This document shows, in pieces, positions 12,796-51,412 of a stretch of 64,000 nt of DNA (position 1 is its first letter; each line of letters begins with the position of its first letter). The notes under the pieces are model-generated. The model made no database searches. It saw nothing but the letters and a program-made list of their open reading frames with translations, and had not been told where the DNA came from. The DNA comes from Candidatus Latescibacterota bacterium (lineage in GTDB: Bacteria; Latescibacterota; UBA2968; UBA8231), in contig OZ244561.1 of NCBI GenBank assembly GCA_965217585.1, forward strand, positions 768,001-832,000. The letters are read 5' to 3'. The translations under genes and the position numbers were made by a program.

Positions 12796-12825
12796 CATCA
12801 CCATTGTCAATTGCTTGAAACAAAA
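12796..12825 (+). repeat. 30-bp direct repeat, copy 1 (copy 2 at 18327-18356)
   Basis: CATCACCATTGTCAATTGCTTGAAACAAAA vs CATCGCCATTGTCAATTGCTTAAAACAAAA, 28/30 identical. Confidence 0.85.
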
Positions 12826-12838
12826 AAGGGAGCCAGCG

Positions 12839-31313: not shown

Positions 31314-31335
31314 CGTCGGTTTGGATTTTTCTCGT

Positions 31336-32890
31336 CTAATCGTCCGGTTTTGTCTGGTTGGACAAGATGTATATGCCACTGCCCCCACCACGAACGGCAT
31401 TCTCCAGCACTACCAAATCTAGATCACCGTCTCCATCCACATCGCCTTCCACAATCGTCCCGCCCAACCCTTGCAACGGATAGCGGCCTTCCCGGAGTGG
31501 CATTCCGTTCTTTCTTCCCATACTGACGACGAGTGCCGGCTGGCGGAAATCGCGATCTACAAACATCGCGTCCAAGAGACCATCTTCATTTAGGTCGGAA
31601 AATACCGCATCCTGTTGCACGAAACCCCTTTCATACCATGCAACCTTGTCCAAGACGCCGTCTCCTCGATTGATTAAAAGATCTAGCCCGGTGAGCATAG
31701 GACTCATATTCATAGAGGCGACGGCCCTTCCCGCAACCATATCTGTATCTCCATCCCGATCAAGATCGCCCGCGTAGCATATCAAATCCGCCGCCGCATC
31801 CACTCTGAGATACTCTTGAATGGTTTCCCCATGTTCACCCAAATAGGTCGCCATATAGTCATGCGGGGTGCCAACATCGGGGCCTTTCCAAAGTAATCCA
31901 GTCTTTCGGCCGCCCGGAACATGGTAGATCAGACGCATGGGGAACCAAGCAAACTCGCCCAATTCGGGTGCCAGAGCCATTTGTTCGTCGAACTGTCCCT
32001 CACCGTCATTGAGCAAAATGACGGCACGCGCCGAGGTCTTGGAGTACAGCTCAGTCAACCATATATCCTCGTATCCATCCCCATCGACATCTCCTATACC
32101 CAAGGGGATCGCCCTATCTGCATGTCGTGCCACCGACCATCCGGCCGGTGCATGCTCCAGTATGTCGAGTGAATGACCAAAGCCCACCACGAGTTCCATA
32201 CGCTGATCGCCGCTTAGGTCGGCACCGACCAGCCTGGGTATGGGGCCGATTCTGGGAAATGGCTCTATGCGTACCTCGGGGGAGAAACGGCCCCCTTCAT
32301 TAAACGCGCACAGCCAACCGGCCCTGCCGGAATTAGGCTTGGGATCCCAGTCTTCCCATACTGCTGCCATATCCATGTCGCCATCGCCATCCAGATCTCC
32401 CAACTCGGCTACGGGCCTGCCGCGCTGTCCTATGTCCAATCCTTGCAGATCTAACGGGTAAAAGAGCGGTAGAGCAAAGAGCGTCCCGACAGGATGCGGC
32501 TCTTCCCTTCTCGGCGGCGCGAACTCTGAGTCTGGCCTTTCCGCATGGGTCAACTCGATCCAATCAACTTCCACCGCCTCGGGGATTTCCCCCGGTCCCT
32601 CCACAACCTTCGAATGGTTGAACAAAGACAGTTGAAGGCGTATTTCGATCAATTCATCTTCCCAGACGCGCCGATATACCTTCAGTCGTCTCCGAATGCA
32701 GCGGTGCTCTAATTACTGCTCCCGAAGCGTCACTTTCCCAGGCCACCCAACCCTGGGCGTCGTCTTCCTGGGTAAAATCCCAAGTGAGGGCACCGAGGCG
32801 CGAAGGATGTAGCAACCACAGGGCCACTAACGCGACCAATCCACCAGATCGCAACGCATATTTCACTGCCGATGCGGAGGGAGTAACCAT
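31336..32890 (-). pseudogene. FG-GAP propeller paralogue with an internal deletion/frameshift in the N-domain and no CTD
   Basis: Signal plus ALTWDFTQEDDAQGW (32654-32890) jumps to VWEDELIEIR...EVDWIELT and DxDGDGD repeats (31336-32652). Ends GIYILSNQTKPDD. Confidence 0.75.
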
Positions 32891-34693: not shown

Positions 34694-36793
34694 CTAGTCG
34701 AGTTTGACCATCTTGCGGATGCGCGTCTGTTCGCCCATCTGAAGCCGATACAGATAGACCCCAGCGGCGACAGGCTGCCCCTGCCCGTCCCGGCCATCCC
34801 AAGTCAGCCGGTGTTCGCCCGCCGCCAGCGGACCTGCCCACACTTGGCGCACCGGCTGACCCAACACGTTGTAGATGGCCAACCGCACCGCCTCAGTTCC
34901 GGCCGGCACGGATAGGGGGATGGTCGTGGCTGGATTGAACGGGTTGGGGTAGTTGGAACCCAAGCGAAAGGCCGAGGGTACCGCCACCTCGCTGGCCACG
35001 GCCGTAATCGGGGTGCCCTGGTTGATATAGACGAACACGCCGCCGGGACCGCCTTCAATACTGAGTCCCAGCACGACCAGATCGTCGTCGCCATCGCCGT
35101 CCACATCGCCAGCGAGCACCTGGGTGCCCGTGCCCGGCAGGGGATAGCGCCCTTCGACGACGGGCACCCCGTCGCGCTGGCCCACCAGCACCACCAGCGC
35201 CGGACCCGTGAGCAAGTTGCGATCAACCAAGGTCAAATCCAGCAGACCATCGCCGGTCAGGTCACTGGCCGTGGCCGCATGCGAAGGAAATACCTGCAAG
35301 TCGAGTAGGGAGTGGTGTGCCAACACGCCCGATTCATCCAGACGCCACAGGTCCAATCCGTGGTGGCTGGTATCGCCGTATAAGTTTCGCTTGGGAGAGC
35401 CGAGTACATCCACCGCCCCATCGCCCTCCAGATCGACGAGCAGGTGCAGATTACACGGATTGATCGCCGCCTCGAAAAACAGCGGCGGCTCCGCGCTGGC
35501 CGCCCACGGCCGGGTCAATTGCCAAGTCCCCTGGGGCTGATAGCAGGCTCGGTTCCATAACAGGCGTACAGCTTGGCCCAGCGGTTGCCCGGCGGGTAGA
35601 TAGGGGAAGCGCCGCACCTTGCCGTCGAGGACGAACCGATGGCTGCGGACAAAACCGTCAGCGCTATCGTTAAGCCACAGGATTGCGTGGGACGATTCGT
35701 CGTCATCTATGACCAACAGGTCCACCTCGCCATCGCCATCGCCATCGGCCAAGCCAACGAACTCGACACCGGACAGTTGCAGGATGGTTGCAAAGCCGTC
35801 CTCGCCTTGGTTGTGCCACAGTTCGATATTCGGACCTTCGTTAAGGACCAAGTCCAAGAGCCCATCCCCGTCGAAATCGCTCCCCCAGAGCCCCCAAATG
35901 ACAGTGCTTGAACTCGTGAACTGTCGGGTGGGGACAAAGCCACCCAACCCGTCGTTGGACGCCACCATCCAGCCCAATACTTCTTCTCCGGTGTCCGTAT
36001 AGCGCTCCCAGACTGCCACTAGATCCACATCGCCATCGCCGTCCACATCGCCCAAAGCGCCCCTCGATTGTCTCAGAAAGCCTCTGACCCCGATGCCCTC
36101 GCCGAGGGGGAAAAAGCTAGGCGCAGCGAATAACGCACTGGACAACCCCGCCTCGAGCACGACCTCCCGAGGCGGCAATTCCCCCAACAGCAACTCCTCC
36201 GTCCCCGTCAGTTGAATCCAGTCCACTTCTACAAAGTCGGGATAGTCATCCGGGCCCTCAGCGTCGTAGTTTAACTCCAAGTCGAGCTGAAAATTAAAGA
36301 GGGTGTCCTGCCAGATGAGCTCCGCTTCTGGGTCCGCAGCCAGAGCGCGTATATCTATCGTGATGTCTTCCCATTCGGTGGGATAGAGTTGCCAACGGCC
36401 TGTAACAAACCTTGACTCCCAGAAATCGGATGGGTCCGCTGCCCTGATGCGTCTGGCCTCGGAGTTGAACCACCATATCTGGAGTCCCCCTGGGGTGGGG
36501 CGATGGTGGATGATGCGTAGCCGTAGGGTGACCCGATCGAATAGGGCTGAGTCTTCCTCAATCAGCGGCGAGTGCAATCGAATGGACGACAAAGAGCCCG
36601 GCACCGGCGCAATGCGCCAAATGCCGTCGGCCACTTCGCTGCGCACCGTGTTGAGAGCCGGTACACTTCGACGGCCGAGGAAACCTTCCTGGGCCGTCCA
36701 ACCCCAGGTGGTATCCTCGGTGAAGTCCCACGTTAAGGCACTCCCCCCCCGTGGAGCCGCCAACAACAAGATGGCCAAGAACATGCCGCGCAT
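34694..36793 (-). CDS. Secreted variable beta-sandwich + FG-GAP/VCBS propeller + FlgD/T9SS-CTD-like protein (copy 1)
   Basis: Signal...ALTWDF, EVDWIQLTG, GDVDGDGDVDL repeats, NYPNPFN...RKMVKLD. Confidence 0.88.
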   Translation of the reverse strand: MRGMFLAILLLAAPRGGSALTWDFTEDTTWGWTAQEGFLGRRSVPALNTVRSEVADGIWRIAPVPGSLSSIRLHSPLIEEDSALFDRVTLRLRIIHHRPTPGGLQIWWFNSEARRIRAADPSDFWESRFVTGRWQLYPTEWEDITIDIRALAADPEAELIWQDTLFNFQLDLELNYDAEGPDDYPDFVEVDWIQLTGTEELLLGELPPREVVLEAGLSSALFAAPSFFPLGEGIGVRGFLRQSRGALGDVDGDGDVDLVAVWERYTDTGEEVLGWMVASNDGLGGFVPTRQFTSSSTVIWGLWGSDFDGDGLLDLVLNEGPNIELWHNQGEDGFATILQLSGVEFVGLADGDGDGEVDLLVIDDDESSHAILWLNDSADGFVRSHRFVLDGKVRRFPYLPAGQPLGQAVRLLWNRACYQPQGTWQLTRPWAASAEPPLFFEAAINPCNLHLLVDLEGDGAVDVLGSPKRNLYGDTSHHGLDLWRLDESGVLAHHSLLDLQVFPSHAATASDLTGDGLLDLTLVDRNLLTGPALVVLVGQRDGVPVVEGRYPLPGTGTQVLAGDVDGDGDDDLVVLGLSIEGGPGGVFVYINQGTPITAVASEVAVPSAFRLGSNYPNPFNPATTIPLSVPAGTEAVRLAIYNVLGQPVRQVWAGPLAAGEHRLTWDGRDGQGQPVAAGVYLYRLQMGEQTRIRKMVKLD

Positions 36794-36849: not shown

Positions 36850-38982
36850 CTAGTCGAGTTTGACCATCTTGCGGACGCGCGTCTGCTCGCCCACCTGCAG
36901 CCGATACAGATAAACCCCAGCGGCTACAGACTGTCCCAGCTCATCCCGGCCATCCCAGCCCAGCCGATGCTCGCCCGCCGCTAGCGGACCAGCCCACACC
37001 TGGCGCACTGGCTGCCCCAGCACATTGTAGATAGCTAATTCCACGTCCTCAGCTCCGGCTGGCACTATCAGGGGAATGATCGTGCTCGAATTAAACGGGT
37101 TGGGATAGTTGGCTCCCAAGCTAAAGGCCAAAGGCTGCACTGCCTCGCTGGCCATAGCCGTGACCGGAGCGCGCTGGTTGATAAAGACAAAGACGCCATC
37201 GTTGCCCGCACCCGGCTCCACCCCCTCCCCAGCTTCCGCACTGATACCCAGCACCACCAGATCATCGACCCCATCGCCATCCACATCGCCCGCCAGCACC
37301 TGCCGGCCCTTGCCTAGCAGCGGGTAGCGCCCTTCGAGCACGGGCACCCCGTCGCGCTGGCCCAGCAACACCACCAGCGCCGGACCGGTCGCCAAGTTGA
37401 TATCGACCAGGGCCACGTCGAGCAGCCCATCGCCGTTCAGGTCCCGGGCGATGCCCCTAGCCGAAAAGAAGACCTCGGAGTCGAACAGGGTGTGGTGAGC
37501 CACCACGCCCGACGCATCGAGGCGCCACAGTTCCAACCCGTGGTAGGTGTTGAAGTAGACGCGGGGACGTAGATTCCGCTCCGGGGAGCCGAGTAGATCC
37601 ACATGGCCATTGCCATCTAGATCGGCCAGCAGGTGTAGGGCGCACGGGTTGACCGCGGCCTCAAAGAAAAGCGCCGGCTCCGGCTGGGCCGCCCACGGAC
37701 GGCTCAGCCGCCAAGGGCCCAGAGGCTGGCCGCACCGTCGGTTCCACAACAGGCGCACGGCCTCGCCGGGGGGTTGGCCGGCGGGCAGGACGGGTACATA
37801 GCCGTTCAGAACCAACCGATCCCCCTGGACAAAGCCACCCTCGCCGTCGTTGGCCCACAACGTCGCGGAGGACGTCGCGTCCTCCCACTCGCCTTCTTCT
37901 GCTGCTACCACCAGATCCACATCGCCATCGCCGTCGCCATCGACCAGACCGATCAGCCGGACGCCAAAGGGCAGGTGCAGGATGGGTTCAAAACCGGCCT
38001 CGCCCCGGTTGAGCCACAGTTCGGTGATCAGACCCTCCGTAAGGACCAGATCCAGCAGCCCATCGCCGTTGAAGTCGTGGCCCTTGAGCTGAAATAAAGA
38101 GGCTTGGCGCGGGATCCGTTGGGTCGGCCTAAAGCGACCCTGCCCGTCGTTAGACGCCACCGTCAAGCGCATTTGATCGGCAACCAAGAGGTCTTCTTGA
38201 TGGACAGACACGGCCGTCACCAGATCCACATCCCCATCGCCGTCCACATCGCCCAACGCGCCATATGAGAAGAACGGGATCCCTGAATTGTCAACTCCTC
38301 CACCTAAGGGCGAAAAGACGGGATCGGCCAACAGCACGCCGGGCCGCCCCGACCCCACCGCCACCTCCCGAGGCGACAACTCCCCCAGCACCAACTCTTC
38401 GGTCCCCGTCAATTGAATCCAGTCCACTTCTAAAAAGTCGGGAAAGTCCTCCGGCCCCTCAGCATAGCTGTTTAACCCTAGGTATAGCTCAAAGTGAAAG
38501 AGAGTGTCTTGCCAAGCGAGACCCTCTTGGTCTAGCGCGATGGTGATGTCTTGCCATTCAGTAGTAAAGACGGGACCGGGACGAGGAGTCACTATATAAC
38601 CCGGTACTATGAATTCGTTCATTTCATAGAGGCGTCTGCGCTCGGCATTGAACCACGACATCTGGAGCCACCCCTCGGTAGGGCTATGGTGTATCAGACG
38701 CAGCCGGAGAGTGACGTGGTCGAACAGAGCCGAGTCTTCGCCGATCCACGGCGAAAGCAATTCAATGCTAGGGTACCGAGAGCCTGGTGCCGGTGCAATG
38801 CGCCACACGCCGTCGGCAACCTCGCTGTGCACCGTCGTCGTCGTTGCCGTACCACCCATACTGGCACCGGCCCCCTCCTGTGCCGCCCAGCCCCAAGTGG
38901 TCTCCTCGGCGAAATCCCACGTTAAGGCGAAAACCCCGGGTGCAGCCGCCAACAACAAAATGGCCAAGAACATGCCGCGCAT
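36850..38982 (-). CDS. FG-GAP + CTD paralogue (copy 2)
   Basis: Same architecture and motifs as copy 1. Confidence 0.88.
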   Translation of the reverse strand: MRGMFLAILLLAAAPGVFALTWDFAEETTWGWAAQEGAGASMGGTATTTTVHSEVADGVWRIAPAPGSRYPSIELLSPWIGEDSALFDHVTLRLRLIHHSPTEGWLQMSWFNAERRRLYEMNEFIVPGYIVTPRPGPVFTTEWQDITIALDQEGLAWQDTLFHFELYLGLNSYAEGPEDFPDFLEVDWIQLTGTEELVLGELSPREVAVGSGRPGVLLADPVFSPLGGGVDNSGIPFFSYGALGDVDGDGDVDLVTAVSVHQEDLLVADQMRLTVASNDGQGRFRPTQRIPRQASLFQLKGHDFNGDGLLDLVLTEGLITELWLNRGEAGFEPILHLPFGVRLIGLVDGDGDGDVDLVVAAEEGEWEDATSSATLWANDGEGGFVQGDRLVLNGYVPVLPAGQPPGEAVRLLWNRRCGQPLGPWRLSRPWAAQPEPALFFEAAVNPCALHLLADLDGNGHVDLLGSPERNLRPRVYFNTYHGLELWRLDASGVVAHHTLFDSEVFFSARGIARDLNGDGLLDVALVDINLATGPALVVLLGQRDGVPVLEGRYPLLGKGRQVLAGDVDGDGVDDLVVLGISAEAGEGVEPGAGNDGVFVFINQRAPVTAMASEAVQPLAFSLGANYPNPFNSSTIIPLIVPAGAEDVELAIYNVLGQPVRQVWAGPLAAGEHRLGWDGRDELGQSVAAGVYLYRLQVGEQTRVRKMVKLD

Positions 38983-39028: not shown

Positions 39029-40351
39029 TCACTCCACCGCCACCAATTGCTGCGCCAAAGAGCCTTCCCGCGTCAAGGCATACACCAAGATGTTGACGCC
39101 GAGGTCATAGGCCGGGAACTCGTCCGCGACGGCGACAAAACGACCGAGAATGCTGCGGGCTCGATCCCACTCGCGTTGCCGCTCGGCCTCGCCCCCCCAC
39201 ATATCTGGGTAGCGCTTTTGCGAATAGAGCCCCACTAGACGGCCATCGACCTCAATGCCCTCCAGGTAATTGGGCGACGGTTCGGCGCGGCCCGCAGTGG
39301 CAGTGTTCCAATACCAGTCGCTGAGGTCCCAGAAGCCCCGCGGCAGGGTGTCGATGTCGTAGAAGCAATGATAGAGCGGGTGCTCCGGCAGCAGCCGCAC
39401 AAAAGCCCAATCTTTGCCCTCGGCGTAGCCTATCTGCGCAAAGGCCTGGCGGATGAAATCGCGCAACGCCGGCAGATCGTGCACAAGGCCCTCGCCGATT
39501 TCTAGGGGCACAGAGACGATATCCGTATAGAGGAACCCCCCGGACGTCAGGTAGCGCCCCAGATTTTTCGCTTCGGCCTGAGTGAACGCCACCTCGTAGT
39601 TGATCGTCAGCAGCAGAAACGGCACTTGCAGCAGGCGCGGATCGTCCAAGTCAATGCCGTCGAGCACTTGGGTGCGCACGCCCGTGCGCTGGCTCATTTT
39701 GTCGGCCAGTCCCCGCAGGGTGCGCCGCTCGGCGACGCTCCGCCGGACAAAACCGCTGCGCGGCATCACTGCGGATTCGGCGCGCTCGAGGGCTTCGCTG
39801 TGGACACCCGATAGGTAGAGGAAGCCCTTGAGCGCGCGCCGGTCGCGTGGATCAACGACCACTAACGCCCGATGGCGACCCGTGTCGAGGGCATCCACGT
39901 CGAGCAATTCCATGTTCAGGTCGATCTCTTCTGCTTCCTGGTGGACCCCCTTTACGACGCCCGTGCGCATCTGAGGACCGATGTGTTGCGTCGGCGGGAG
40001 AGAAGAAGTAACCGTCGGCAAAACAGGGGGCGGAGCCTCGGTGACGGTTAGGGGTATGGACATGCCCTGACGCAGGTTGCGGCGGGTGGTTAAGGGGGCG
40101 GGGCGGACCGCGGCCACGGGGGTCGGTCGCACCGCTGGACGGCGCACCAGAGGTCTTTGTATCTGCGGGGACACCTGCCGACGAGCTAGGAGGCGGCGGT
40201 CGGGCGGTGGGCTTTTGTCAAATTTCAATAATATGGGTCGCCGGTGCTCTAGCGGCTGGTCGGCGCTCCAGAGGAAGAGCAAGGATAGATGGAGCACCGC
40301 AGAGAGCCCGATGAATCCGGCGATGCGGAGACGCTGGGGGGATCGGGGCAT
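39029..40351 (-). CDS. DUF4159 protein with a TonB-like N-terminus (paralogue of 29982-31313)
   Basis: Near-identical N-half to 29982-31313; C-terminal LGVNILVYALTREGSLA. Confidence 0.8.
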   Translation of the reverse strand: MPRSPQRLRIAGFIGLSAVLHLSLLFLWSADQPLEHRRPILLKFDKSPPPDRRLLARRQVSPQIQRPLVRRPAVRPTPVAAVRPAPLTTRRNLRQGMSIPLTVTEAPPPVLPTVTSSLPPTQHIGPQMRTGVVKGVHQEAEEIDLNMELLDVDALDTGRHRALVVVDPRDRRALKGFLYLSGVHSEALERAESAVMPRSGFVRRSVAERRTLRGLADKMSQRTGVRTQVLDGIDLDDPRLLQVPFLLLTINYEVAFTQAEAKNLGRYLTSGGFLYTDIVSVPLEIGEGLVHDLPALRDFIRQAFAQIGYAEGKDWAFVRLLPEHPLYHCFYDIDTLPRGFWDLSDWYWNTATAGRAEPSPNYLEGIEVDGRLVGLYSQKRYPDMWGGEAERQREWDRARSILGRFVAVADEFPAYDLGVNILVYALTREGSLAQQLVAVE

Positions 40352-40422
40352 AGTCGGTTTAGACTTTTCTCGTCTAAGTGTAAACATCTAATAGCGCTAG
40401 CGTTGTCGGTGGGTCGGGGCGT

Positions 40423-42579
40423 CTATTCGAGTTTGACCATCTTGCGAGTGCGCGTCTGGTCGCCCACATGTAACCGATACAAATAGACCCCAGCGGCGAC
40501 GGGTTGGCCCCACTCGTCCCGGCTATCCCAAGTCAGCCGGTGCGAACCGGCCGCCAGTGGACCAGCCCACAATTGGCGCACCGGCTGCCCCAACGTGTTG
40601 TAGATGGTTAAGTCCACATCGCCGGCTCCAGCGGATACCGTAAAGGGGATGGTCGTGGCCGGATTGAACGGGTTGGGGTAATTGGCACCAAGGACAAACG
40701 AAACCGGCTGATATCCCCCTATTGTTTCGGCGACTGCCGTGGCCTCGTCCGAAGTAGTGTTGAGCAGCACATGCACTCCTCCTCCCCCTACAGCAGCCGA
40801 CTCCGACACTACTATATCTACATCGTCATCGCCGTCTAGGTCGCCGGCAGCGATGCTCCCACCCGGTCCACTGAGAGGGTAGTAGCCCTCCTGTCGTGGT
40901 GGACCGTTCTCCTGACCTAGGTGAACCACGACGCCGGGATGGCGAAAATCGCTGTTGACGAAAACCAAATCGAGCCGACCGTCGCCGTTCAGGTCTCGGG
41001 ACAGGACCCTGCCGACGAGGACCACGTCCCGGTGTAACCGCATCTCCTCCAAGCCCCCATCGTCCGTGTTGATCCCTAGGGTCAGCCCTTTGAACATCGG
41101 ATTATTATCAAAAATTTTCACATCGGCCGTGGCCCAATCCACATCCCCGTCCCGGTCAAAATCTCCCACATAGCGGAGCAGGCTAGACTGTTCAAGATGG
41201 TCTATCCGAACGGGGAGAGACCTAATCTCCAGCTCTCCGACCGCATTGATATGCGTCGTCTTGTAGCCCGCCCCCGGATTGTCAAAAGGCGGCCGCCACA
41301 ACATACCTGGCACTTGGCTCACGCCTATCGCCTCTATGAACCGGGACGGCTGAAACCCCATCTGTGGGCTCAGCGACAGGCTATTCTGCGAGCCAAATTG
41401 GCCCGTGCCGTCGTTTAACAGCACCAGCACGTCGGCGTCGTCAAAGCCAAAGTTCATGAGGCCCCACATATCTTCGTAGCCATCTCCATTAATGTCCGCC
41501 AAGGCAAAAGACGAAAAGGTTTTGTAGTCGAAAAAGAAAGAGCCTAACTCTTCTTCAGTGAAACCCTCTGCGCCATAATTGACGAGCACCTCGATGGTCG
41601 CTCCGTTTGACACCACGATATCTAACAACCCGTCTCTATTGATATCGCCACCGTTTATGCGTGACCACCCCCTCGGTGTTGGCACCGTCTTCGCATACCC
41701 GTATGAAAATCCGCCTGAACCGTCTCCAAACGCGACGAGCCAGCCTTTTCTTACCTTTGCAACCCACTGGGCAACCAAGTCTATCGTCCCGTTCCCGTCC
41801 ACATCACCCAGCAACGGTGCAAATTGTGTACTCGGTCGCACCTCCAGAGGATGGAAAGTGGGCGAGTTAAACAAGCGGCCAAAGGAGGCGGACAACTCTA
41901 CTGCGGGCGGCGGCAGTTCGCCCTGGATCAGCTCTTCCACGCCCGTCAACTGTATCCAGTCGATCTCCACGGCCTCCGGCACCTCGTCTGCTCCCTGCAC
42001 CAAGGCATTCTCTGAGCCCGCTGTAGATAGCTGTAGATCGATCCGTATGTCGTCCAATGCCCCTTCCCATAAGATGTTGACCAACCTGCCGCTCAATTCG
42101 GAGGGCCTCGTCTCCAAATCTGCGTAGACGATCTCCTGCCAGTCCGTGGTATAGACATGCTGCTGGAAAACCCAGAAGAAGACATTCCGATCTACTTGTT
42201 CACGAGGTTCCCAACCAGGGGTCAAGCGATTGTGCGCATTGGTCCAGTGGAGTTGAGAACTACCAAAAATCGGGTCGGTATGCACCACGCGAAGACGCAC
42301 CCGGACCCGATCAAACAGACCGGAATCCTGCCCGATAAGAGGAGAGACTAACTGGAGCGACGGATTGCGCCCACGCTCAAAGGGGGGTATATCAATGCGC
42401 CAGACCCCATCGCTCACTTCTGAGCGCAAGTGGGCTAGAGTATTCGTAGGGACGTCCGAGTAGAAGCTTTCGCGGGCGGTCCAACCTTGGGTGTCTCCTG
42501 CTGCGTCGAATTCCCAGGTTATAGCGCCAGCGCGGGGAATTTGAGTGGCGAGGAACAGAACCGCGAATAGAACTTTCAT
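40423..42579 (-). CDS. FG-GAP + CTD paralogue (copy 3, divergent subtype)
   Basis: AITWEFDAAGDTQGW, PEAVEIDWIQLTG, FG-GAP repeats, NYPNPFN...RKMVKLE. Confidence 0.88.
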   Translation of the reverse strand: MKVLFAVLFLATQIPRAGAITWEFDAAGDTQGWTARESFYSDVPTNTLAHLRSEVSDGVWRIDIPPFERGRNPSLQLVSPLIGQDSGLFDRVRVRLRVVHTDPIFGSSQLHWTNAHNRLTPGWEPREQVDRNVFFWVFQQHVYTTDWQEIVYADLETRPSELSGRLVNILWEGALDDIRIDLQLSTAGSENALVQGADEVPEAVEIDWIQLTGVEELIQGELPPPAVELSASFGRLFNSPTFHPLEVRPSTQFAPLLGDVDGNGTIDLVAQWVAKVRKGWLVAFGDGSGGFSYGYAKTVPTPRGWSRINGGDINRDGLLDIVVSNGATIEVLVNYGAEGFTEEELGSFFFDYKTFSSFALADINGDGYEDMWGLMNFGFDDADVLVLLNDGTGQFGSQNSLSLSPQMGFQPSRFIEAIGVSQVPGMLWRPPFDNPGAGYKTTHINAVGELEIRSLPVRIDHLEQSSLLRYVGDFDRDGDVDWATADVKIFDNNPMFKGLTLGINTDDGGLEEMRLHRDVVLVGRVLSRDLNGDGRLDLVFVNSDFRHPGVVVHLGQENGPPRQEGYYPLSGPGGSIAAGDLDGDDDVDIVVSESAAVGGGGVHVLLNTTSDEATAVAETIGGYQPVSFVLGANYPNPFNPATTIPFTVSAGAGDVDLTIYNTLGQPVRQLWAGPLAAGSHRLTWDSRDEWGQPVAAGVYLYRLHVGDQTRTRKMVKLE

Positions 42580-42672
42580 CCTTTTACTCCTAATTGCACT
42601 ACTTCGGTCACAGTATAGTCGAGCTTAGACCTCAAAGGTCAACAACAGACGAATCCTCTTAGGTCAGGGCGT

Positions 42673-44837
42673 CTATTCGAGTTTGACCATCTTGCGGGTA
42701 CGCGTCTGCTCGTCCACCTGCACCCGATACAAATAGACTCCGTCGGCGACGGATTGGCCCTGCGCGTCCCGGCCATCCCATGTCAACCGATGCGAGCCGG
42801 CCGCCAGCGGACCCGCCCACACGTGGCGCACCGGCTGCCCTAAGATGTTATAGATGGTTAAGTCCACATCCCCGGCTCCGGCAGGTACGGTAAGGGGGAT
42901 GGTTGTGGCGGGATTGAACGGATTAGGATAGTTAGCACCCAAAGCAAAGGCCATTGGCGTTGCCGCCGTCTCGGCCGCGATAGCGGTGGCTGGAACGCCT
43001 TGGTTGAGGAAGACGAAGGCCCCGCCGGGACCGCCTTCCACACTCCGCCCCAGCACCACCAGATCGGTCGCCCCATCGCCGTTTACATCGCCGGCGAGCA
43101 CTTGGCTACCAATGCCCGGCAGGGGGTAGCGCCCTTCGACGACGGGCACCCCATCGCGCTGGCCGACCAGCACCACCAGCGCCGACCCGGTGGCCACGTT
43201 GACATCGACCACGGCCAGGTCCAACAGGCCATCGCCGGTCAGGTCACTGGCAAGGACCCCACCCTCATCCGACACGAGCACCTGCGGCCCGAGCAGGGTG
43301 TGGCGTTCCACCCCGCCCGAGGCGTCCACACGCCACAGCGCCAAACCGTGGTGGGTGGTGGCACCAAAAAAGTCGAAGTATAGATTCCGCTCAGGGGTCC
43401 CGACGAACTCCACCGCCCCATCGCCATCCAGATCGGTGAGTAGGTACAGGTCACAGGGATTGACCGCGGCCTCAAAAAACAGCGGTGGCTGCTGGCTGGC
43501 CGCCCACGGCTGGGTCAGTTGCCAAGGCCCCGTGGGCTTGTAGCACACTCGGTTCCACAACAGGCGCACGGCCTCGCCCAACGGTTGCCCAGCGAGCAGA
43601 AAAGGATTGAGCTCCTCTTCGCTGTCGAGGGCGAACCAATCACTGTGGGCAAAACCGGCCGCGCCGTCATTGATCCACAGAGTCACGTTGGACCACGTGT
43701 CGCCTTCTATGACCAACAGGTCCACATCGCCGTCGCCATCGCCATCGGCTAGGCCAAGGGAAAAGACGTCGGATAGCTGGAGGATGGTTTCAAAGCCATT
43801 CTCGCCCCGGTTGAGCCACAATTCGAGGGTCAGACCTTCCCGAAAGGCCAAATCGAGCAGCCCATCCCCGTCGAAATCGCCCCCTGCAATCTCCATGATA
43901 GGCGCGAACTCGCCTTGGCTTGGGCGGAGAACCTCTCGGGTGGGGACCAAGCCGCCCAAACCGTCGCTGGTCGCTACCGTCCAGCCCGCTTGGGCCGTCA
44001 TCGTACTCGTCTCTGGGACACCGTGTAGTGTGTCCAGACCACTACCAGATCGGCATCGCCATCGCCGTCCACATCGCCCAAAGTACCTTGCGATAGTGGG
44101 CCACCGATACCTTGGCCCAGCACAGAAAAGCGCGGTTCGGCGAACAACGCGCCGGGCGACCCGGCCTCCACGGCGATCTCCCGGGGCGGCAATTCCCCCA
44201 GCACCAGCTCTTCGGCCCCCGTCAGTTGAATCCAGTCCACTTCGACAAAGGCTGGATGATCGGCCGGGCCCTGTGGGTCGATGTTTAAGTTTAGGTCTAG
44301 TTGCAAGTGGAAGAGGGTGTCCTGCCAAGTGATCGCGAGCCACTCTTCTTCTGGGTTCGCTTCCGCCGCGGCCTCCAAGGCGCGTATGTCTATGGTGACG
44401 TTTTCCCATTCCGTGGGATAGAGTTGATAACGGCCCGTATAAAACCCCGCCCGGCTGTCCATTCCGCGGTCGCCTGCTTCCTTCCTGAGGTGTCTGGACT
44501 CGACATTGGACCAGTCCATCAGGAGGTTCCCCTCGGTGGGGCGATCGTGTACGATGCGTAGCCGTAGGGTGACCCGGTCGAACAGGGCGGAGTCTTCCCC
44601 AATCAGCGGCGAGAGCAAGCGAATGGCTGGTCGTTGACCGACCGGCACCGGCGCAATGCGCCAGACGCCGTCTTCGACTTCGCTGTACACCGTGGTGGGA
44701 CTAACTCCACCGTTATTGCCTAAGTAGCTCTCGTGGGCCGTCCAGCCCCAAGTGGTGCCCTCGTCAAAATCCCACGTTAAGGCAAAGGCGCTAGGTGGAG
44801 CCGCCAATAACAAAATTGCTAAGAGAACACAGTGCAT
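42673..44837 (-). pseudogene. FG-GAP + CTD paralogue (copy 4), frameshifted near 44000-44035
   Basis: N-half is in ORF 43998-44837 and C-half in the frame of 42673-44409. The 2165-nt span is not a multiple of 3. Confidence 0.85.
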
Positions 44838-44931
44838 TGTTTGCCTCCAGAGTTTGTGGTCGTGCGGTTTAGCTGCCTCATCTCCAAGCCCTATCGCCTA
44901 TTCGAGTTTGACCATCTTGCGGGTGCGCGTC
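44838..44931 (-). repeat. Conserved 60-bp cassette spacer plus orphan 3' end of a CTD (TRTRKMVKLE*)
   Basis: 44898-44931 CTATTCGAGTTTGACCATCTTGCGGGTGCGCGTC matches the FG-GAP gene ends. The spacer matches 47102-47161 and 49247-49306. Confidence 0.9.
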
Positions 44932-44968
44932 GTGCTTAATTAAACCGTATTGATCTTAAAACGGCTTC

Positions 44969-47101
44969 TCACAAGCTCGCCTCAATCGCCGCTACCGTCG
45001 CGTCTGTATTCCCCCTTAAGCCAGAATCCTCCACGATCAGCCCTTGTGAGTCCACCAAGTAATACGAAGGAATGCCCATCACTTGGTAGGACTTGGCCAC
45101 GTCCGCACCCCAGCCGTCCCCCCGCACGTGGACGCCTTTGATCTCGTGTTTGTCAATCGCCTCTCGCCAAGCAGCCTCATCCGCGTCCAGCGATATGTTG
45201 AGGAAGACGACCGGCCAGCCAGACGTCTTTTCCTTGACTTCTCGGAGATAGGGTAGGTCGCCGATACACGGGACACACCAACTCGCCCAGAAGTCGAGCA
45301 GAACCACCTGCCCCTTGAACTGGCTCAGCGATACCGGCTGACCGTCGAGGTCGTCGAGGGTAAAGTCGGGGGCGGCTTGTCCGGGTTGTAGCTTCATGGC
45401 GGTAGCCAGAGCCACTAGGACGGCCTCATTGTATTCCGGATACGGGTTGATCTGTTGGAACTCTTCCCACTTGCGCTGGGCCGCCGCAAAGCCTTCACTG
45501 CCACCGCGCTTGAGCGTATTGATCAGCTCTCCGGCTAAAAACCAGTAGAGCACTCTCCCCTCCAGTTTTTCTTTGGCCAAGTTGTATTTAGACCCAAACC
45601 AGTGTCCTTTTTCGGCATAGATCGAATCGAGTTGCGCTTGGGCGGCTTCCGATAGTCCCAAGCCCGATAGATCAATCTTCGCCGACAGCCCGAGCGGTTG
45701 GCGATGTTCGTACATCGAGTCGAGCTGGGCCTGAGCGGCTTCCGACAGCCCCAAGCCCGATAAATCGAGCTTTGCAGACAGCTTGAGTGGCTCTTTGGTT
45801 AGGGAATTCCACGGTACTGAGAAAGGCTTATGGAACACCACCTCTCCGTCCGTCGTATCCGCCCTAGGCTTCTCTTCCTCACTTGGGTAGACGTTGAGAG
45901 CCCTAGCGGACTTTTCGTACAGAGAGTCGAGTTGCGCGTGGGCACTTTCCGAAACACCAAACGCCGATAAATCGTACAGTTCGGACAGCTTGAGCCAGCG
46001 GCCATCCCTTTCGTACAGAGAATCGAGTTGCACTTGGGCACTCGCTGAAACACCAACCACGGACAAATTGACCATTTTCGACAGCACGGGCTGTCGGCCG
46101 TCCTTTTCGTACAGGGAGTCGAGTTGCGCTTGGATCTCCTCCGACAACTCCAAACCCGATAGATCGTACCGCTTGGATAGCTTGGGGGGGCTCCATTCGA
46201 ACTCGTTATGGTCTTCCTAGCCCAAGGTCCTCTCCACAAACTCGCGATAATGCCAGACGCCTATGGCCTTTTCGTCCACTAGGGGGAATTCCTGCAGGAA
46301 GTCGTAGTACTCTGGGGTGATGTCTCTGTTCTTGCGTTTGTTGGCAAAGCGGTAAGCCGTCGAGTAAGACATCATCTCATTGACCCACATATAGTTGACG
46401 TAGTTTGTCACATAGTCGATGCACCCTAAAGACAGCGCATATCGCTCGCGCCCTGCGGCCAAGAACTCGAACTGATCTCGCCGCTGCTGTTCCATGCGGC
46501 GCGAAAACTCTTCCAACTCCAGACCCTCGTAATCGAGGTGGAAGAATTGGAAGCGCGGAAACCACTCGGAAGTGAAGCGGCTGTTGTCTGCGTTGGAGCC
46601 GCTGAACGAATAGGAAGGAACGAAAAAGCCCTCCTCCACGGCCACGTGCAGACTGTCGCCGGGTTCGACGAAGAGAGTCAGGAATTTGCGCTCGAAAAGG
46701 AACGATCCTAACCACTGTACCCATTTCCATCTCGGCTGCCCGCCTTCGAAATACCCCCAGACGAGGGTCCCTCGGACGACAGGCAGCTCAAGGGCGAAGC
46801 GATCCAAGCTGTCGAGCGCGACGCGCTGCTCGGGGCTTTCCAGCGCCGACAGCGATTCGTACCTAAATGTGATTTCCCGCGAGCGAGGATCCCGGACTTC
46901 GCCGGTGATGATCACAACCGATGGCTGGCTCTGAGTACTATCTGCGTCCAAACGAGGACTCGCTACCATGCTTTCGCTGCTCACCATGGTAGCCGTTGCG
47001 GAACTCTCCTGTGCCGCCCAGCCCTCGGCGAAATCCCACGTTAAGTCAGAGACTCCGTGTGGAGCCGCCACCAACAACATTGCAAAGAGAACGCGGCGCA
47101 T
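44969..47101 (-). pseudogene. TlpA/redoxin with an FG-GAP-derived leader and helical repeats, one in-frame TAG at 46217-46219
   Basis: ORFs 46217-47101 and 44969-46153 share a frame with 63 open nt between them. FWASWCVPC, GIPSYYLVD; leader MRRVLFAMLLVAAPHG...LTWDFAEGWAAQE. Confidence 0.85.
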
Positions 47102-47161
47102 AATACACCTCCAGAGTTTGTGGTCGTGTGGTTTAGATCCCTCATCTCCAAGCCCTATCGT
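47102..47161 (-). repeat. Conserved 60-bp cassette spacer
   Basis: ...CCTCCAGAGTTTGTGGTCGTGTGGTTTAGATCCCTCATCTCCAAGCCCTATCGT. Confidence 0.85.
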
Positions 47162-49246
47162 CTATTCGATTTTGACCATCTTGCGGGTACGCGTCTGATC
47201 ATCCACCTGCAACCGATACACATAGACCCCAGTGGCGACGGGTTGACCCTGCGCATCCCGGCCATCCCAAGTCAGCCGATGCTCGCCAGCGGGCAGCGGC
47301 CCCGTCCACACCTGGCGCATCGGCTGCCCCAGGACATTGTAGATGGTTAAGTCCACGTTCCTCGCTCCGGCGGGTACGACCAAGGGGATGGTCGTGGTGG
47401 GATTGAACGGATTGGGATAGTTGGCACCTAAAGCAAAGGCTGTTGGCGTGGCCGCCTCGGCCGCTATTGCTGTGGCCGGAGTGCCTTGGTTGGTCAAGAC
47501 GAAGACGCCGCCTTGGCCGCTGGCCGGATTCGTTCCCAGCACGACCAGATCGATGTCGCCATCGCCGGTGACATCGCCGGTGAGGACCTGATTGCCCTCG
47601 CCGGGCAGGGGGTAGTAGCCTTCGAAGACGGGTGCGCCGTCGCGCTGGCCGAGCCACACCAATAGAGCCGGACGACCGATGCTCAAGTTGCCAGCGACCA
47701 TAGCCACATCCAGCACGCCATCGCCGTTGAGGTCGCTGGCCGTGGCTGCGTGCGCCGGGAGCACCTTCCAATCGAGCAAGGAATGGCGTGCCACCACGCC
47801 GGAGGCGTCCAGACGCCACAGGGACAAGCCGTAGTAGTGGTTGCCGAAGAAGAAAAAACCTTTGGGGGAGTCGAGTAGGTCCACCATCCCATTGCCGTCG
47901 AGATCAGCCATCAGGTGCAGGGCGGAGGGATTGACCGCGGCCTCGAAAGAGCGCGGTGGTTCTGGGATGGCGGCCCACGGTCGGGTCAGTTGCCAAGGCC
48001 CCTGGGCCTGGTACCACAACAGGCTCGCAGCTTCGCCGAGGGGTTGCCCGGCGGGTAGGTAGGCAGGGAAATGCTCTCCGCTGTCGAGGATGAATTCCTC
48101 GCCGCGGACAAAGTCGTAGCCGTCGTTGATCCATAGAACCACTTTTCGGGACAACGCGTCGTACTCCCCGACCAACAGGTCCGTATCGCCGTCGCCGTCG
48201 CCATCGGCCAAGCCAACGAGCCAGACATCGAACAGTTGCAGGGAGGGTTCAAAGCCGTCGCCCCAGTTGTACCACACTTCGACGATTCCGTTCTCGTCAA
48301 CGACCAGATCTAGGAGTCCATCGTCGTCGAAGTCGTTTCCCCAGAGGTCCATGATTGGAAAGGAGTCAAAGGATGCGGTGGTTGAGAGAGTGACCTCTTG
48401 GGTGGGTTCAAAGCCGCCTAGCCCGTCGTTGGACGCCACCGTCCAGCCTAGTTGTCTTTCGCGGTCCACGAGGCGGTTCCAAGCCACCACGAGATCCGCA
48501 TCGCCATCGCCGTCTACGTCGCCCACCGCGCCTTGCGATGCTCGCCAATAGATTGGGGTGCCGATGCCCTTTCCAAGCGGAAAAAAGTCGGGGGCGGCGA
48601 ACAGCGTGCCGGGCGGCTCCAACTCCACACCGATATCCCTAGGCACCAATTCCCCCTGCGCCAACTCTTCGGCTCCTGTGAGCTGGATCCAGTCTATTTC
48701 TAGAAACTTTGGGTGGTTGTCCACGTCCTGCGAGTCCCGATATAACAGCATGTCTATAAAAAAATTAAAAAGAGTATCCTGCCAGGTGATCGCCCATTCT
48801 GTGTCTGCTTCTGCCAAGGCGCGTAGATCTACGGTGATGTCTTCCCATTCGATGGGATACGATTGCTCACGTCCCGTACTAAACACTCCTTTTGTGTCAG
48901 AGTCAGGGTGGCTCACGGCATTGGACCAAATCATCGAGAATTGTTCCTCAGTGGGGCTATGGTGTATGAGGCGCAGCCGTAGGGTGAGGCGGTCGAACAG
49001 GGCCGAGTCTTGCCCGATCAACGGTGAGCGCAATTGAACAGTGGGTCTGCGACCAGGCACGGGCGCAATGCGCCAGACGCCATCGACGACTTCGCTCTGT
49101 AGTGGTTCGAGACTGCCTCTTGTATTGCTATGAAAACCTTCCCGGGCGGTCCAGCCCCAAGTGGAGCCGTCGGCGAAATCCCACGTTAAGGCAAAGGCCC
49201 CGTGTGGAGCCGCCACCAGCAACATTGCAAAGAGAACGCGGCGCAT
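47162..49246 (-). CDS. FG-GAP + CTD paralogue (copy 5)
   Basis: Same architecture; very similar to copy 6 outside the loops. Confidence 0.88.
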   Translation of the reverse strand: MRRVLFAMLLVAAPHGAFALTWDFADGSTWGWTAREGFHSNTRGSLEPLQSEVVDGVWRIAPVPGRRPTVQLRSPLIGQDSALFDRLTLRLRLIHHSPTEEQFSMIWSNAVSHPDSDTKGVFSTGREQSYPIEWEDITVDLRALAEADTEWAITWQDTLFNFFIDMLLYRDSQDVDNHPKFLEIDWIQLTGAEELAQGELVPRDIGVELEPPGTLFAAPDFFPLGKGIGTPIYWRASQGAVGDVDGDGDADLVVAWNRLVDRERQLGWTVASNDGLGGFEPTQEVTLSTTASFDSFPIMDLWGNDFDDDGLLDLVVDENGIVEVWYNWGDGFEPSLQLFDVWLVGLADGDGDGDTDLLVGEYDALSRKVVLWINDGYDFVRGEEFILDSGEHFPAYLPAGQPLGEAASLLWYQAQGPWQLTRPWAAIPEPPRSFEAAVNPSALHLMADLDGNGMVDLLDSPKGFFFFGNHYYGLSLWRLDASGVVARHSLLDWKVLPAHAATASDLNGDGVLDVAMVAGNLSIGRPALLVWLGQRDGAPVFEGYYPLPGEGNQVLTGDVTGDGDIDLVVLGTNPASGQGGVFVLTNQGTPATAIAAEAATPTAFALGANYPNPFNPTTTIPLVVPAGARNVDLTIYNVLGQPMRQVWTGPLPAGEHRLTWDGRDAQGQPVATGVYVYRLQVDDQTRTRKMVKIE

Positions 49247-49306
49247 TGTTTACCTCCAGAGTTTGTAGTCGTGCGGTTTAGCTCCCCCACCTCCAAGCCC
49301 TATCGT
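49247..49306 (-). repeat. Conserved 60-bp cassette spacer
   Basis: TGTTTACCTCCAGAGTTTGTAGTCGTGCGGTTTAGCTCCCCCACCTCCAAGCCCTATCGT. Confidence 0.85.
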
Positions 49307-51412
49307 CTATTCGATTTTGACCATCTTGCGGGTGCGCGTCTGGTCGCCCACCTGCAACCGATACACATAGACCCCAGCGGCAACAGGTTGACCCTGCGCA
49401 TCCCGGCCATCCCAAGTCAGCCGATGCTCGCCAGCCGGCAGCGGCCCCGTCCACACTCGGCGCATCGGCTGCCCCAGGACATTGTAGATGGTTAAGTCCA
49501 CGTTTTTGGCTCCGGCGGGCACGGCCAAGGGGATGGTCGTGGCGGGATTGAACGGATTGGGATAGTTGGCTCCGAGGGCAAAGGTCGTGGGCGTGGCCGT
49601 CTCGACCGTCACGGCTGTGGCCGGGGTGCCTTGGTTGATCAAGACGAAGACGCCACCGAGGCCGCTGGCCGGATTCGTTCCCAGCACGACCAGATCGGTG
49701 TTGCCATCGCCGTTGACATCGCCGGTGAGCACCTGATTGCCCTCGCCTGACAGGGGGTAGTAGCCTTCGAGGACGGGTGCGCCGTTGCGCTGGCCGAGCC
49801 ACACCAATAGAGCCGGACGACCGATGCTCAAGTTGCCAGCGACCATAGCCACATCGAGCACGCCATCACCGTTGAGGTCGCTGGCGGTGGCTTCGTGCGC
49901 TATGAACGCCTTCCAGTCGAGCAAGGAATGGCGTGCCAACACGCCCGAGGCGTCCAGACGCCACAGAGCCAAGCCGTAGTAGTCGGTTTCACCGAACCTA
50001 TCTATGCTCTCAGGGGAGCCGAGTAGGTCCACCATCCCATTGCCGTCGAGATCAGCCAGTAGGTGCAGGGCATAGGGATTGACCCCGGCTTCGAAAGAGC
50101 GCGGTGGTTCTTGGCTGGCGGCCCACGGCCGGGTCAGTTGCCAAAAGTCTTGAGGCTCAAAGCAGCCCCCATTCCACAACAGGCTGGCGGCTTCGCCCAA
50201 GGGTTGGCCGTCGGGCAGATAGGGGCACAGCTTCTCTCTGTCGGGGGAGAATGTATCACTGCTGACAAAATCGTAGCCGTCGTTGCTCCACAAGGTCGCG
50301 TAATACGATTCGCCGTCATACCCCCCGACTAACAGGTCCACATCGCCGTCGCCGTCGCCATCGACCAAGCCAATGGGCCAGACGTCGAACAGTTGCAGAG
50401 CGGGATCAAAGCCGTCGCCCCAGTTGTACCACACTTCGACGATTCCTCTTTCGGCAACGACCAGATCTAGGAGTCCATCGCCGTCGAAGTCGCTTCCCCA
50501 GAGGTCCATGATTGGAAAGGAGTCAAAGGATGCGGTGGTTGAGAGAGTGACCTCTTGGGTGGGTTCAAAGCCGCCTAGCCCGTCGTTGGATGCCACCGTC
50601 CAGCCCAGTTGGCTTTCGCGGTCCACGAGGCGGTCCCAGAGCACCACGAGATCCGCATCGCCATCGCCGTCTACGTCGCCCACCGCACCTTGCGATGCTC
50701 GCCGATAGCTTGGGGTGCCGATGCCCTTTCCGAGCGGAAAAAAGTCGGGGGCGGCGAACAGCGTGCCGGGCGGCTCCAACTCCACACCGATATCCCTAGG
50801 CGACAATTCCCCCTGCGCCAACTCTTCGGCCCCGGTCAGCTGGATCCAGTCTATTTCTAAAAACTTTGGATGGTTATCCACGTCCTGCGAGTCCCGATAT
50901 AACACCATCTCTATATCAAAATTGAAGAGAGTATCCTGCCAGGTGATCTCCCATTCTGTGTCTGCTTCTGCCAAGGCGCGTAGATCTATGGTGATTTCTT
51001 CCCATTCGAGGGGATAGGATTGCCGACGTCCCGTACCAAATACTCTTTTTGTGCCAGAGACAGGGCGGCGTCTTTTCTCGGCATTGGACCAGTTCATCAC
51101 GAATAGTTCCTCGGTGGGGCTATGGTGTATGAGGCGTAGCCGTAGGGTGAGGCGGTCGAACAGGGCCGAGTCTTCCCCGATCAACGGTGAGCGCAATCGA
51201 ACGGTGGGCCTTCGACCGGGCACGGGTGCAATGCGCCAGACGCCATCGACGACTTCGCTCTGTAGTGGGTCTCTATTAATAAAAGTTACATTGCTATGAC
51301 CACTTTCCCGGGCGGTCCAGCCCCAGGTAGAGCCATCGTCGAAATCCCACGTTAGAGCAAAAGCCCCGTGTGGAGCCGCCAAGAAGCCAATAGTGAATAG
51401 CAAGTGGCGCAT
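49307..51412 (-). CDS. FG-GAP + CTD paralogue (copy 6, first in the array)
   Basis: Same architecture, ending ...RKMVKIE. Confidence 0.88.
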   Translation of the reverse strand: MRHLLFTIGFLAAPHGAFALTWDFDDGSTWGWTARESGHSNVTFINRDPLQSEVVDGVWRIAPVPGRRPTVRLRSPLIGEDSALFDRLTLRLRLIHHSPTEELFVMNWSNAEKRRRPVSGTKRVFGTGRRQSYPLEWEEITIDLRALAEADTEWEITWQDTLFNFDIEMVLYRDSQDVDNHPKFLEIDWIQLTGAEELAQGELSPRDIGVELEPPGTLFAAPDFFPLGKGIGTPSYRRASQGAVGDVDGDGDADLVVLWDRLVDRESQLGWTVASNDGLGGFEPTQEVTLSTTASFDSFPIMDLWGSDFDGDGLLDLVVAERGIVEVWYNWGDGFDPALQLFDVWPIGLVDGDGDGDVDLLVGGYDGESYYATLWSNDGYDFVSSDTFSPDREKLCPYLPDGQPLGEAASLLWNGGCFEPQDFWQLTRPWAASQEPPRSFEAGVNPYALHLLADLDGNGMVDLLGSPESIDRFGETDYYGLALWRLDASGVLARHSLLDWKAFIAHEATASDLNGDGVLDVAMVAGNLSIGRPALLVWLGQRNGAPVLEGYYPLSGEGNQVLTGDVNGDGNTDLVVLGTNPASGLGGVFVLINQGTPATAVTVETATPTTFALGANYPNPFNPATTIPLAVPAGAKNVDLTIYNVLGQPMRRVWTGPLPAGEHRLTWDGRDAQGQPVAAGVYVYRLQVGDQTRTRKMVKIE

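Follow-up and report, generated by a model that had tools for sequence, protein, structure and literature searches.

In integron cassettes, a promoterless gene is given its expression signals by the platform in which it is placed, a system that uses IntI, attI and attC. In Rhs and contact-dependent inhibition (CDI) loci, C-terminal toxin tips are exchanged recurrently together with immunity genes, and orphans can be re-expressed. Orphan modules occur in these polymorphic-toxin loci (PMC3967940), and chimeric genes formed by deletion or recombination occur in tandem arrays of paralogues, for example the tpr gene family of treponemes (PMC3656149). Here, we describe a 64,000-nt stretch of Candidatus Latescibacterota bacterium DNA (assembly GCA_965217585.1, contig OZ244561.1, positions 768,001 to 832,000), hereafter the window, in which paralogous genes of ≈700 codons, or cassettes, form a tandem array, all the genes concerned being on the minus strand. 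One slot in this array holds a TlpA-family gene between the two ends of a cassette. Most probably, this is an old and fixed chimeric gene, the product of a one-off fusion that was inherited by a clade, and not a capture system. The locus is a chimeric gene with an acquired new 5′ end; it is not integron-like and opens no new kind of system.

Like an integron cassette, the slot gene receives expression signals from the platform it sits in. Unlike in integrons, no IntI, attI or attC was found here, the fusion is in frame in coding sequence, and there was a single event. As in the tpr-type arrays, conserved 5′ and 3′ ends are found across the array members, with an interior of different origin that is inherited as a normal gene; unlike in those arrays, the interior comes from a different family (TlpA) and not from an array paralogue, and the slot shows no sign of varying between strains. 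With the orphan modules of Rhs/CDI loci, the slot shares a fragment of the former gene end left downstream after replacement and short homology blocks that bound the exchanged part, whereas here the exchange occurred once and the orphan consists of 10 codons and is eroding. In the literature searched, taken in excerpt, we found no published description of the array or of the fusion.

The slot gene (Table 1) consists of two segments with separate homologues. Codons 1–43 match cassettes only, while from residue ≈57 onwards the matches are to TlpA relatives with other N-termini; with a definable in-frame junction between the two, the gene qualifies as a chimeric (fusion) gene. The gene starts at 47101 with MRRVLFAMLLVAAPHG, 16 residues that are identical in cassette B, and its first 48 nt differ from those of B at one position. 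The stub that follows this signal, LTWDFAE/GWAAQE up to SSE, is nearest to cassette E; aligned with the cassettes, the slot gene shows a gap of 12 nt and another gap within the variable stretch. The BLASTN match begins 70 nt before the ATG and includes the first 82 nt of the gene, with 90% identity to B over 152 nt (E 2e-55), 83% to C over 149 nt, 78% to E over 143 nt and 76% to F. By pairwise DNA alignment, homology to the cassettes extends to codon 43 (position 46973), and in the N-terminal alignment the cassette part stops with the SE of SEV.DGVWRI, a motif conserved among the cassettes, at a position that is identical in all clade members that keep the junction. The leader motif occurs six times in the window, against 0.00 expected. 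The N-terminus is signal-like, with MRR followed by a hydrophobic run, and residues 2–11 form a helix in the model of an orthologue, P0002 (database proteins are referred to by P numbers).

Immediately after the junction, most orthologues read SMVSSARL... and P0076 reads ITASSVRL..., while the native signal peptide of the relatives ends MASSACL...SAQSQ. The likeness between this short stretch and the last part of the native signal suggests that the crossover probably took place within the signal peptide that the TlpA gene originally had. A perfect 9-nt inverted repeat (46962–46970 and 46985–46993, 14 nt apart) spans the fusion junction; ≈0.1 would be expected by chance by our own estimate, and it may be either a chance occurrence or a joining scar.

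At the other end, the TlpA stop codon is at 44969–44971, and after a gap of 37–38 nt there follows an orphan cassette tail, in which 44898–44930 translates as TRTRKMVKLE*. Tail and spacer together are 93% identical to cassette A over 98 nt (BLASTN, E 6e-37), and a 20-nt motif of the tail occurs seven times in the window, against 0.01 expected. The slot gene has no in-frame C-terminal sorting domain (CTD) before its end at 44969 and does not show the TIGR04183/Por_Secre_tail feature of type A cargo of the type IX secretion system (T9SS). Lacking an in-frame CTD, the slot protein would be expected to remain periplasmic and not to be secreted by the T9SS. These results agree with an earlier, sequence-only reading of the stretch, which had noticed a copy-5 signal (copy 5 is cassette B) plus a copy-2-like LTWDFAE-GWAAQE (copy 2 is cassette E) at the gene start, a switch to a TlpA body, and the orphan tail and standard spacer ≈40 bp after the stop; BLASTN and the alignments indicate that a TlpA-family gene has replaced the cassette interior.

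The same 3′ arrangement was seen in another genome. In P0192, a frameshifted reading, the C-terminal domain of TlpA runs on into the next gene, and by tblastn this protein is collinear with 45496–44628 of the window. It contains, in order, the C-terminal end of TlpA (84% identity), the 3′ flank, whose translation is identical at 12 of 13 residues (ELVRSRFKINTV), the initial residues of the orphan tail, a 17-codon gap, and a cassette leader with the start of its N-terminal domain. Since P0192 is collinear with the window, the order of TlpA, 3′ flank, orphan tail and cassette appears to be older than the divergence of the two genomes, and the orphan tail, which is shorter in the genome of P0192, appears to be eroding. 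Equal contig sizes are also recorded for TlpA orthologues and B-type cassettes, the smallest being 10,882 bp (P0002 and P0126), an indirect indication that the two are physically linked elsewhere.

The C-terminal part of the slot protein is a thioredoxin-fold domain. It matched the Pfam families Redoxin (2.4e-20, 73.3 bits, cut-off 26.6) and AhpC-TSA (2.4e-18, 66.7 bits, cut-off 26), the PDB sequences 2lja (2.6e-23) and TlpA 1jfu (1.6e-13), and, by Foldseek, the structure of ResA (1su9; target-normalised TM 0.85, rmsd 2.1). Equivalog level was not reached in NCBIfam, where the protein scored 58.4 bits against a cut-off of 230 for NF047696 (TlpA) and 76.1 against 170 for NF002854 (ResA). The slot protein is a member of the TlpA/ResA-type family, and not an orthologue of the studied TlpA or ResA. 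Like the TlpA/ResA/DsbE-type oxidoreductases with long N-terminal extensions of Bacteroidota and their relatives, it has a C-terminal thioredoxin fold, a WCxPC motif and an N-terminal export signal. Unlike those proteins, it falls short of the NCBIfam TlpA and ResA cut-offs, its signal peptide was taken over from a different gene family, and its first ≈560 residues matched no Pfam family; the structure search found the thioredoxin domain only, and no solved look-alike for the remainder.

An AlphaFold2 model was made of P0002, an intact orthologue that is 94% identical (mean predicted local distance difference test score, pLDDT, 78). The model has a β-sandwich at residues ≈62–168, a long helical region with internal repeats and the C-terminal thioredoxin fold. 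Residues 1–59, comprising the signal and the cassette stub, have a pLDDT of 24–46, and the values beyond are mostly >75; the LTWDF stub is thus predicted to be disordered. The TlpA body (≈45400–46200, minus strand) contains five to six tandem-like repeats of ≈32 aa of the type DLSGLGLSE..AQAQLDS.YE, with DNA self-matches of 74–81% over 80–125 nt; they are helical in the model and matched nothing in Pfam or the PDB.

A word-index search for homologues of the slot protein scored 8000 candidates and found 692 of them significant; 120 of these were listed. The full-length homologues among these 120 are 680–724 aa long and up to 94% identical. The few annotated ones are TlpA family proteins from Gemmatimonadota metagenome-assembled genomes (MAGs), and the names in the clade are those of Gemmatimonadota or Latescibacterota MAGs. 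We compared the N-termini of 114 sequences of at least 600 aa, including the query and the L001 protein described below; eight shorter ones were dropped. A cassette signal with LTWDF was present in 44 of the 114 and a cassette-type signal without LTWDF in 22; three had a MacB/FtsX-like first transmembrane helix, and one started inside the stub. The remaining 44, at 51–67% identity, had an unrelated signal of their own leading directly into the SQPSVAIITGE start, and these are the leaderless TlpA homologues that the sequence-only reading had suggested looking for. The own-signal relatives are 609–712 aa long, most of them ≈670–710. That reading had also remarked on the similar size of the slot and its neighbours, which holds (2204 nt, against 2085–2165 nt for the cassettes) but is probably a coincidence, since the own-signal relatives are already of this length; for the same reason, we rejected the idea of a size-constrained socket.

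One own-signal relative, L001, is 51% identical and lies on a Latescibacterota chromosome. It was the sole full-length relative among 80 loci kept from a scan of genome contigs with the TlpA alignment, a scan dominated by the generic pattern L[LI]DFWASW. Around it lie another TlpA-like gene, an S41 peptidase, a Kelch protein and SMC, with no FG-GAP array and no tail motif nearby. The own-signal forms were considered as lipoproteins, because a Cys is conserved where the signal ends, but this was rejected, since the sequence preceding that Cys departs from the canonical lipobox.

Trees were built from the mature part only, with the N-termini cut before the ITGE motif. P0076, in which the trimming motif was not found, was left off, as were the eight short rows dropped earlier. 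With FastTree on 113 rows, all 69 proteins with a non-native N-terminus formed one clade (support 99), nested within the own-signal forms when the tree was rooted on L001, and a quick IQ-TREE run on a 45-row subset gave the same split with a Shimodaira–Hasegawa-like approximate likelihood ratio (SH-aLRT) of 99. The label of own-signal versus replaced N-terminus changes once on the tree; this single change with a support of 99 argues for a single old event, and the fusion thus appears to have had a single origin. The LTWDF label changes nine times inside the clade, where 43 of the 69 members keep it, and the stub was deleted independently at least 8–9 times; in P0019, P0051, P0055 and others it is wholly removed, with only the signal kept. 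Leader-bearing and own-signal forms are listed together on equal chromosome-sized contigs (for example, 6633482, 7393604 and 7335155), which indicates that they are paralogues within genomes. The payload, which the sequence-only reading took for foreign, therefore belongs to a resident paralogue family; the GC content of the slot (0.53–0.59) is inside the range of the surrounding window, and composition gave no sign of foreign origin.

In three proteins of the clade (P0065, P0067 and P0068), a first transmembrane helix like that of a MacB/FtsX permease stands in place of the cassette signal, with part of the stub kept. This N-terminus is 36% identical over 42 aa (E 3e-9) to a MacB-like gene of the window at 14776–14955 (plus strand). 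The sister of the three on the tree is P0075, the bearer of the most complete leader, and their N-termini represent a later, second replacement in the same gene lineage.

In the reading that we favor, a resident paralogue of a ≈700-aa periplasmic thiol-disulfide oxidoreductase of the TlpA/ResA type would have ended up inside one FG-GAP cassette in an ancestor of this clade of the Fibrobacterota–Chlorobiota–Bacteroidota (FCB) group. Illegitimate recombination or deletion would have joined codon 43 of the cassette in frame to the tail end of TlpA’s own signal peptide and eliminated all of the cassette body except the final 10 codons. This may have taken one step, a replacement, or more, an insertion followed by one or two deletions. 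The TlpA gene now uses the spacer and ribosome-binding site (RBS), the ATG and the Sec signal peptide of the cassette, and its product would be exported by Sec through the borrowed signal. The gene is presumably co-transcribed with the array. A promoter and terminator scan of 42400–49500 gave sites no more numerous than in shuffles, and none in the spacers. The LTWDF...GWAAQE stub and the 34-nt orphan tail would then be fossils.

As assembled, the chimeric gene is interrupted by an in-frame TAG at 46217–46219 (minus strand, codon 295), which was not reported in the sequence-only reading and splits it into open reading frames (ORFs) of 294 and 394 aa. Codon 295 encodes Trp in 91 of 120 homologues and Arg in 25, so the change would be from TGG to TAG, and since the cassettes themselves terminate in TAG, this is a stop codon in the organism. 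The 294-aa ORF of the slot is present in the database (P0258, a cluster of four sequences). A second protein of 294 aa, P0257, has two substitutions and likewise ends after residue 294; it comes from a second assembly, on a contig equal in size to that of P0123, a near-identical orthologue of B. Because P0257 ends at the same codon, the stop is probably real and common to at least two assemblies. The slot gene in this genome is therefore probably a recent pseudogene, and the exported product as assembled would be without the thioredoxin domain. Cassette C is frameshifted near 44007 (a tblastn match to cassette F passes there from frame 1 into frame 3), giving ORFs at 43998–44837 and 42673–44409, so that the assembly shows disruptions in two of the array’s eight genes. 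Frameshifts or truncations also affect many relatives of the slot gene (P0064, P0072, P0074, P0079, P0107, P0120, P0187–P0189 and P0192), which suggests error-prone assemblies or frequent gene decay. Assembly quality is uneven in the group, and there is some small chance that a systematic error lies behind the TAG.

The sequence-only reading had gone on to propose that the cassette ends are reusable sockets, by which foreign genes are captured time and again and provided with an RBS and an export signal, in an integron-like manner without a visible integrase. One part of this stands: the spacer with its RBS, the ATG and the signal of the cassette are indeed used by the slot gene. In searches for other payloads, the leader of B (residues 1–50) gave 81 matches among 95 candidates in proteins of 381–1215 aa, 64 with FG-GAP Pfam domains and 17 of the TlpA type (three of them frameshifted copies checked by eye), and 30 matches among 32 candidates in proteins of <381 aa, comprising 17 cassette-type or leader-only fragments and 13 of the TlpA type; matches in both of these searches depend on 5-residue words in common with the leader of B. 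A profile of seven window leaders had 50 matches among 1.84 billion cluster representatives, in a search that is blind to a swapped protein if its 50% cluster is represented by the native form. These were 39 cassette-type or short fragments, eight TlpA-type fragments, P0192, P0215 and one unrelated repeat protein, a spurious match to profile positions 17–36 only. Thus, among 161 leader-bearing proteins (81 + 30 + 50, from overlapping lists), the non-cassette bodies were TlpA and one DUF4159 remnant (P0215) only, with no further working payload. Apart from short fragments, the leader-bearing non-cassette proteins have a TlpA body that is 72–94% identical to the query. Different bodies behind the same leader, as in programmed cassette variation, were not seen, the non-cassette leader proteins carrying a TlpA-type N-terminus, nor did the leader searches show the many unrelated payloads in equivalent positions that characterize integrons. 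What we found is essentially a unique event, the outcome that the sequence-only reading itself had named as refuting its proposal.

P0215, a protein of 132 aa from another genome, consists of a cassette leader (residues 1–39) and the last 95 aa of a DUF4159 protein. Its leader is 88% identical to that of C over 26 aligned residues (14–39), and its DUF4159 part is 64% identical to residues 358–452 of gene X, the neighbor of cassettes D and E. P0215 has the appearance of a remnant left by a deletion that ran from a leader across the genes downstream and into X, and not of a working payload; judging from this protein, deletions do join leaders to downstream genes in these arrays.

A Pfam scan of 35 window ORFs (11 + 24), which outside the array covered ORFs of ≈200 aa and longer, revealed no integrase, recombinase or transposase, in keeping with the sequence-only reading. 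No inverted repeat of ≥8 nt was present in 44780–45010, and in 46960–47240 there was a single 9-nt pair, inside the coding junction, and no attC-like site. The RNA fold of 44838–44990 showed no structure (z-score 0.74). The junctions are direct repeats, made up of coding tail, spacer and coding leader.

Sockets of this kind would account for the position of the TlpA gene exactly between cassette ends, for P0215 as a second chimera of leader and foreign body, and for the three TlpA orthologues with yet another N-terminus. Nevertheless, we consider them highly unlikely, since the trees give the TlpA fusion a single origin and its payload is from a resident paralogue family, the breakpoints differ (codon 43 in TlpA, 39 in P0215), and P0215 keeps only the last 95 of ≈450 residues. 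Moreover, the 81 + 30 matches included no bodies other than cassette and TlpA, the only exceptions among the 50 cluster representatives were P0215 and the spurious repeat protein, neither a recombination enzyme nor a hairpin or att-like repeat was found, and gene X sits between D and E without leader or orphan tail. Misjoining of reads across the repeated cassette ends, which the sequence-only reading had named as a concern, might be suspected in a repetitive array with two disrupted genes and many frameshifted database relatives. However, more than 60 clusters at 90% identity among the listed homologues, from different contigs, begin with the same chimeric N-terminus, which rules out a local misassembly; the chimeric N-terminus also co-varies with the mature part on the tree, and P0192 shows the 3′ junction in another genome. 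We regard an artefact as practically negligible. It is also very unlikely that the LTWDF...GWAAQE stub is functional, for example as a sorting or interaction tag common to FG-GAP proteins, which would make the fusion more than a signal swap. Its retention in 43 of the 69 clade members, which are 72–94% identical to the query, would fit such a role, but it was lost at least 8–9 times, in some cases completely, the stretch is disordered in the P0002 model, and in the cassettes the motif forms the first strand of a ≈200-aa domain that is otherwise absent here.

A further alternative, compatible with our preferred explanation, is that the fusion is old, but that junction repeats of ≈190 bp still recombine by gene conversion, so that the TlpA leader is overwritten by neighboring cassettes or overwrites them. 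We hold this to be possible, if on balance doubtful. The near-identity of the first 48 nt to B, next to a stub that resembles E, would be explained in this way, as would the F-like leader with a full TEDTTWGW stretch in the basal proteins P0075 and P0076. On the other hand, in several genomes the B-type signal (MRRVLFAMLLVAAPHG) occurs on TlpA as well as on B-type cassettes, an identity that may reflect old shared ancestry, the c-regions are consistently different (VSD and AFA), and the comparison is biased, as the FG-GAP matches were chosen by their similarity to the leader of B.

Returning to the one-off fusion, several observations weigh against it. No intermediate was seen among the sequences, such as a native-signal TlpA gene inside an array. 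Conservation of the array context is indicated by one frameshifted read-through protein (P0192) and, indirectly, by contigs of equal size. The mosaic leader, with its B-like signal, E/F-like stub and F-like form in P0075 and P0076, hints at later gene conversion, so that the junctions may not be recombinationally inert. Finally, P0215 and the MacB/FtsX-like N-terminus imply that N-terminal exchange is not strictly unique in the lineage. A bolder reading, which we consider unlikely, is that the tail–spacer–leader junctions are recombinase-free hot spots that, in the course of evolution, repeatedly graft the array’s translation start and Sec signal onto resident envelope genes. If so, TlpA would have become fixed after a single graft and a DUF4159 gene would have received one or more; export signals at the N-terminus would be exchanged unusually readily in this lineage, which the MacB/FtsX-type N-terminus of three orthologues fits, and tandem arrays would be a source of export-signal swaps.

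With the one-off fusion, the locus would provide a clean, datable case of a periplasmic enzyme swapping its signal peptide through in-frame fusion with a neighboring gene, with fossils visible on both flanks and the decay of a useless stub traceable along the tree. It is of use in annotation, where assignment to a family by the N-terminus would go astray and the TAG makes the gene appear as two ORFs. The case also cautions that odd, repeat-bounded genes in arrays need not mean a capture mechanism.

Table 1. The slot, its parts and the surrounding array, in window positions.
Feature	Position	Strand	Description and evidence
Cassette A	49307–51412	−	
Cassette B	47162–49246	−	Copy 5 of the sequence-only reading; 694 aa, FG-GAP/VCBS + T9SS type A C-terminal sorting domain; upstream neighbor of slot
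Spacer 5′ of slot gene	47102–47161	−	Standard 60-nt spacer with GGAGG RBS; junction alignment, BLASTN
Slot	44898–47101	−	2204 nt
Chimeric TlpA-family gene	44969–47101	−	710 codons + stop, single frame
Cassette-derived 5′ end	46973–47101	−	Codons 1–43, signal peptide + stub of cassette N-terminal domain; BLASTN, alignments
Junction stretch	46925–46972	−	Codons 44–59, similar to C-terminal end of relatives’ native signal peptide (ASSACL...SAQSQ)
Thioredoxin-fold domain	45002–45409	−	Residues ≈565–700; Pfam, PDB sequence matches, Foldseek
CxxC active-site motif	45266–45280	−	WCVPC; motif confirmed
3′ flank	44932–44968	−	37 nt, A+T-richer; appears to have travelled with TlpA gene; no match in cassettes
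Orphan cassette tail	44898–44931	−	34 nt, last 10 T9SS CTD codons + TAG, non-coding here; BLASTN, alignment, translation
Spacer before cassette C	44838–44897	−	Standard spacer with RBS; junction alignment
Cassette C	42673–44837	−	Downstream neighbor of slot; frameshifted as assembled
Cassette D	40423–42579	−	
Gene X	39029–40387	−	DUF4159; between D and E, no leader or orphan tail
Cassette E	36850–38982	−	Copy 2 of the sequence-only reading
Cassette F	34694–36793	−	

Pfam assigns FG-GAP/VCBS repeats to the cassettes, together with a FlgD_ig/Por_Secre_tail C-terminus (Table 1). Cassette B matched FG-GAP_3 (1.3e-18) and FlgD_ig (1.9e-11) and passed the NCBIfam model TIGR04183 for the T9SS type A sorting domain, with 39.7 bits against a cut-off of 23. 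Most inter-cassette spacers are 46–60 nt long, with a conserved sequence ending in GGAGG; the exceptions are those between D and X (35 nt) and between C and D (93 nt). The latter (42580–42672) is unrelated to the others, and cassette D itself has a divergent leader (42460–42579), ITWEFD..GDTQGW, of a type that recurs in more distant database matches (P0217 and P0225–P0239). A second DUF4159 gene, at 29982–31400 (minus strand), adjoins a shorter FG-GAP gene at 31336–32652 (minus strand). Farther away, at 8433–14695 (plus strand), two BlaR1-M56/ExbD proteins with a FlgD_ig-type C-terminus flank a distant TlpA-like gene (11478–12776), the product of which is 28% identical to the slot protein over the thioredoxin domain.

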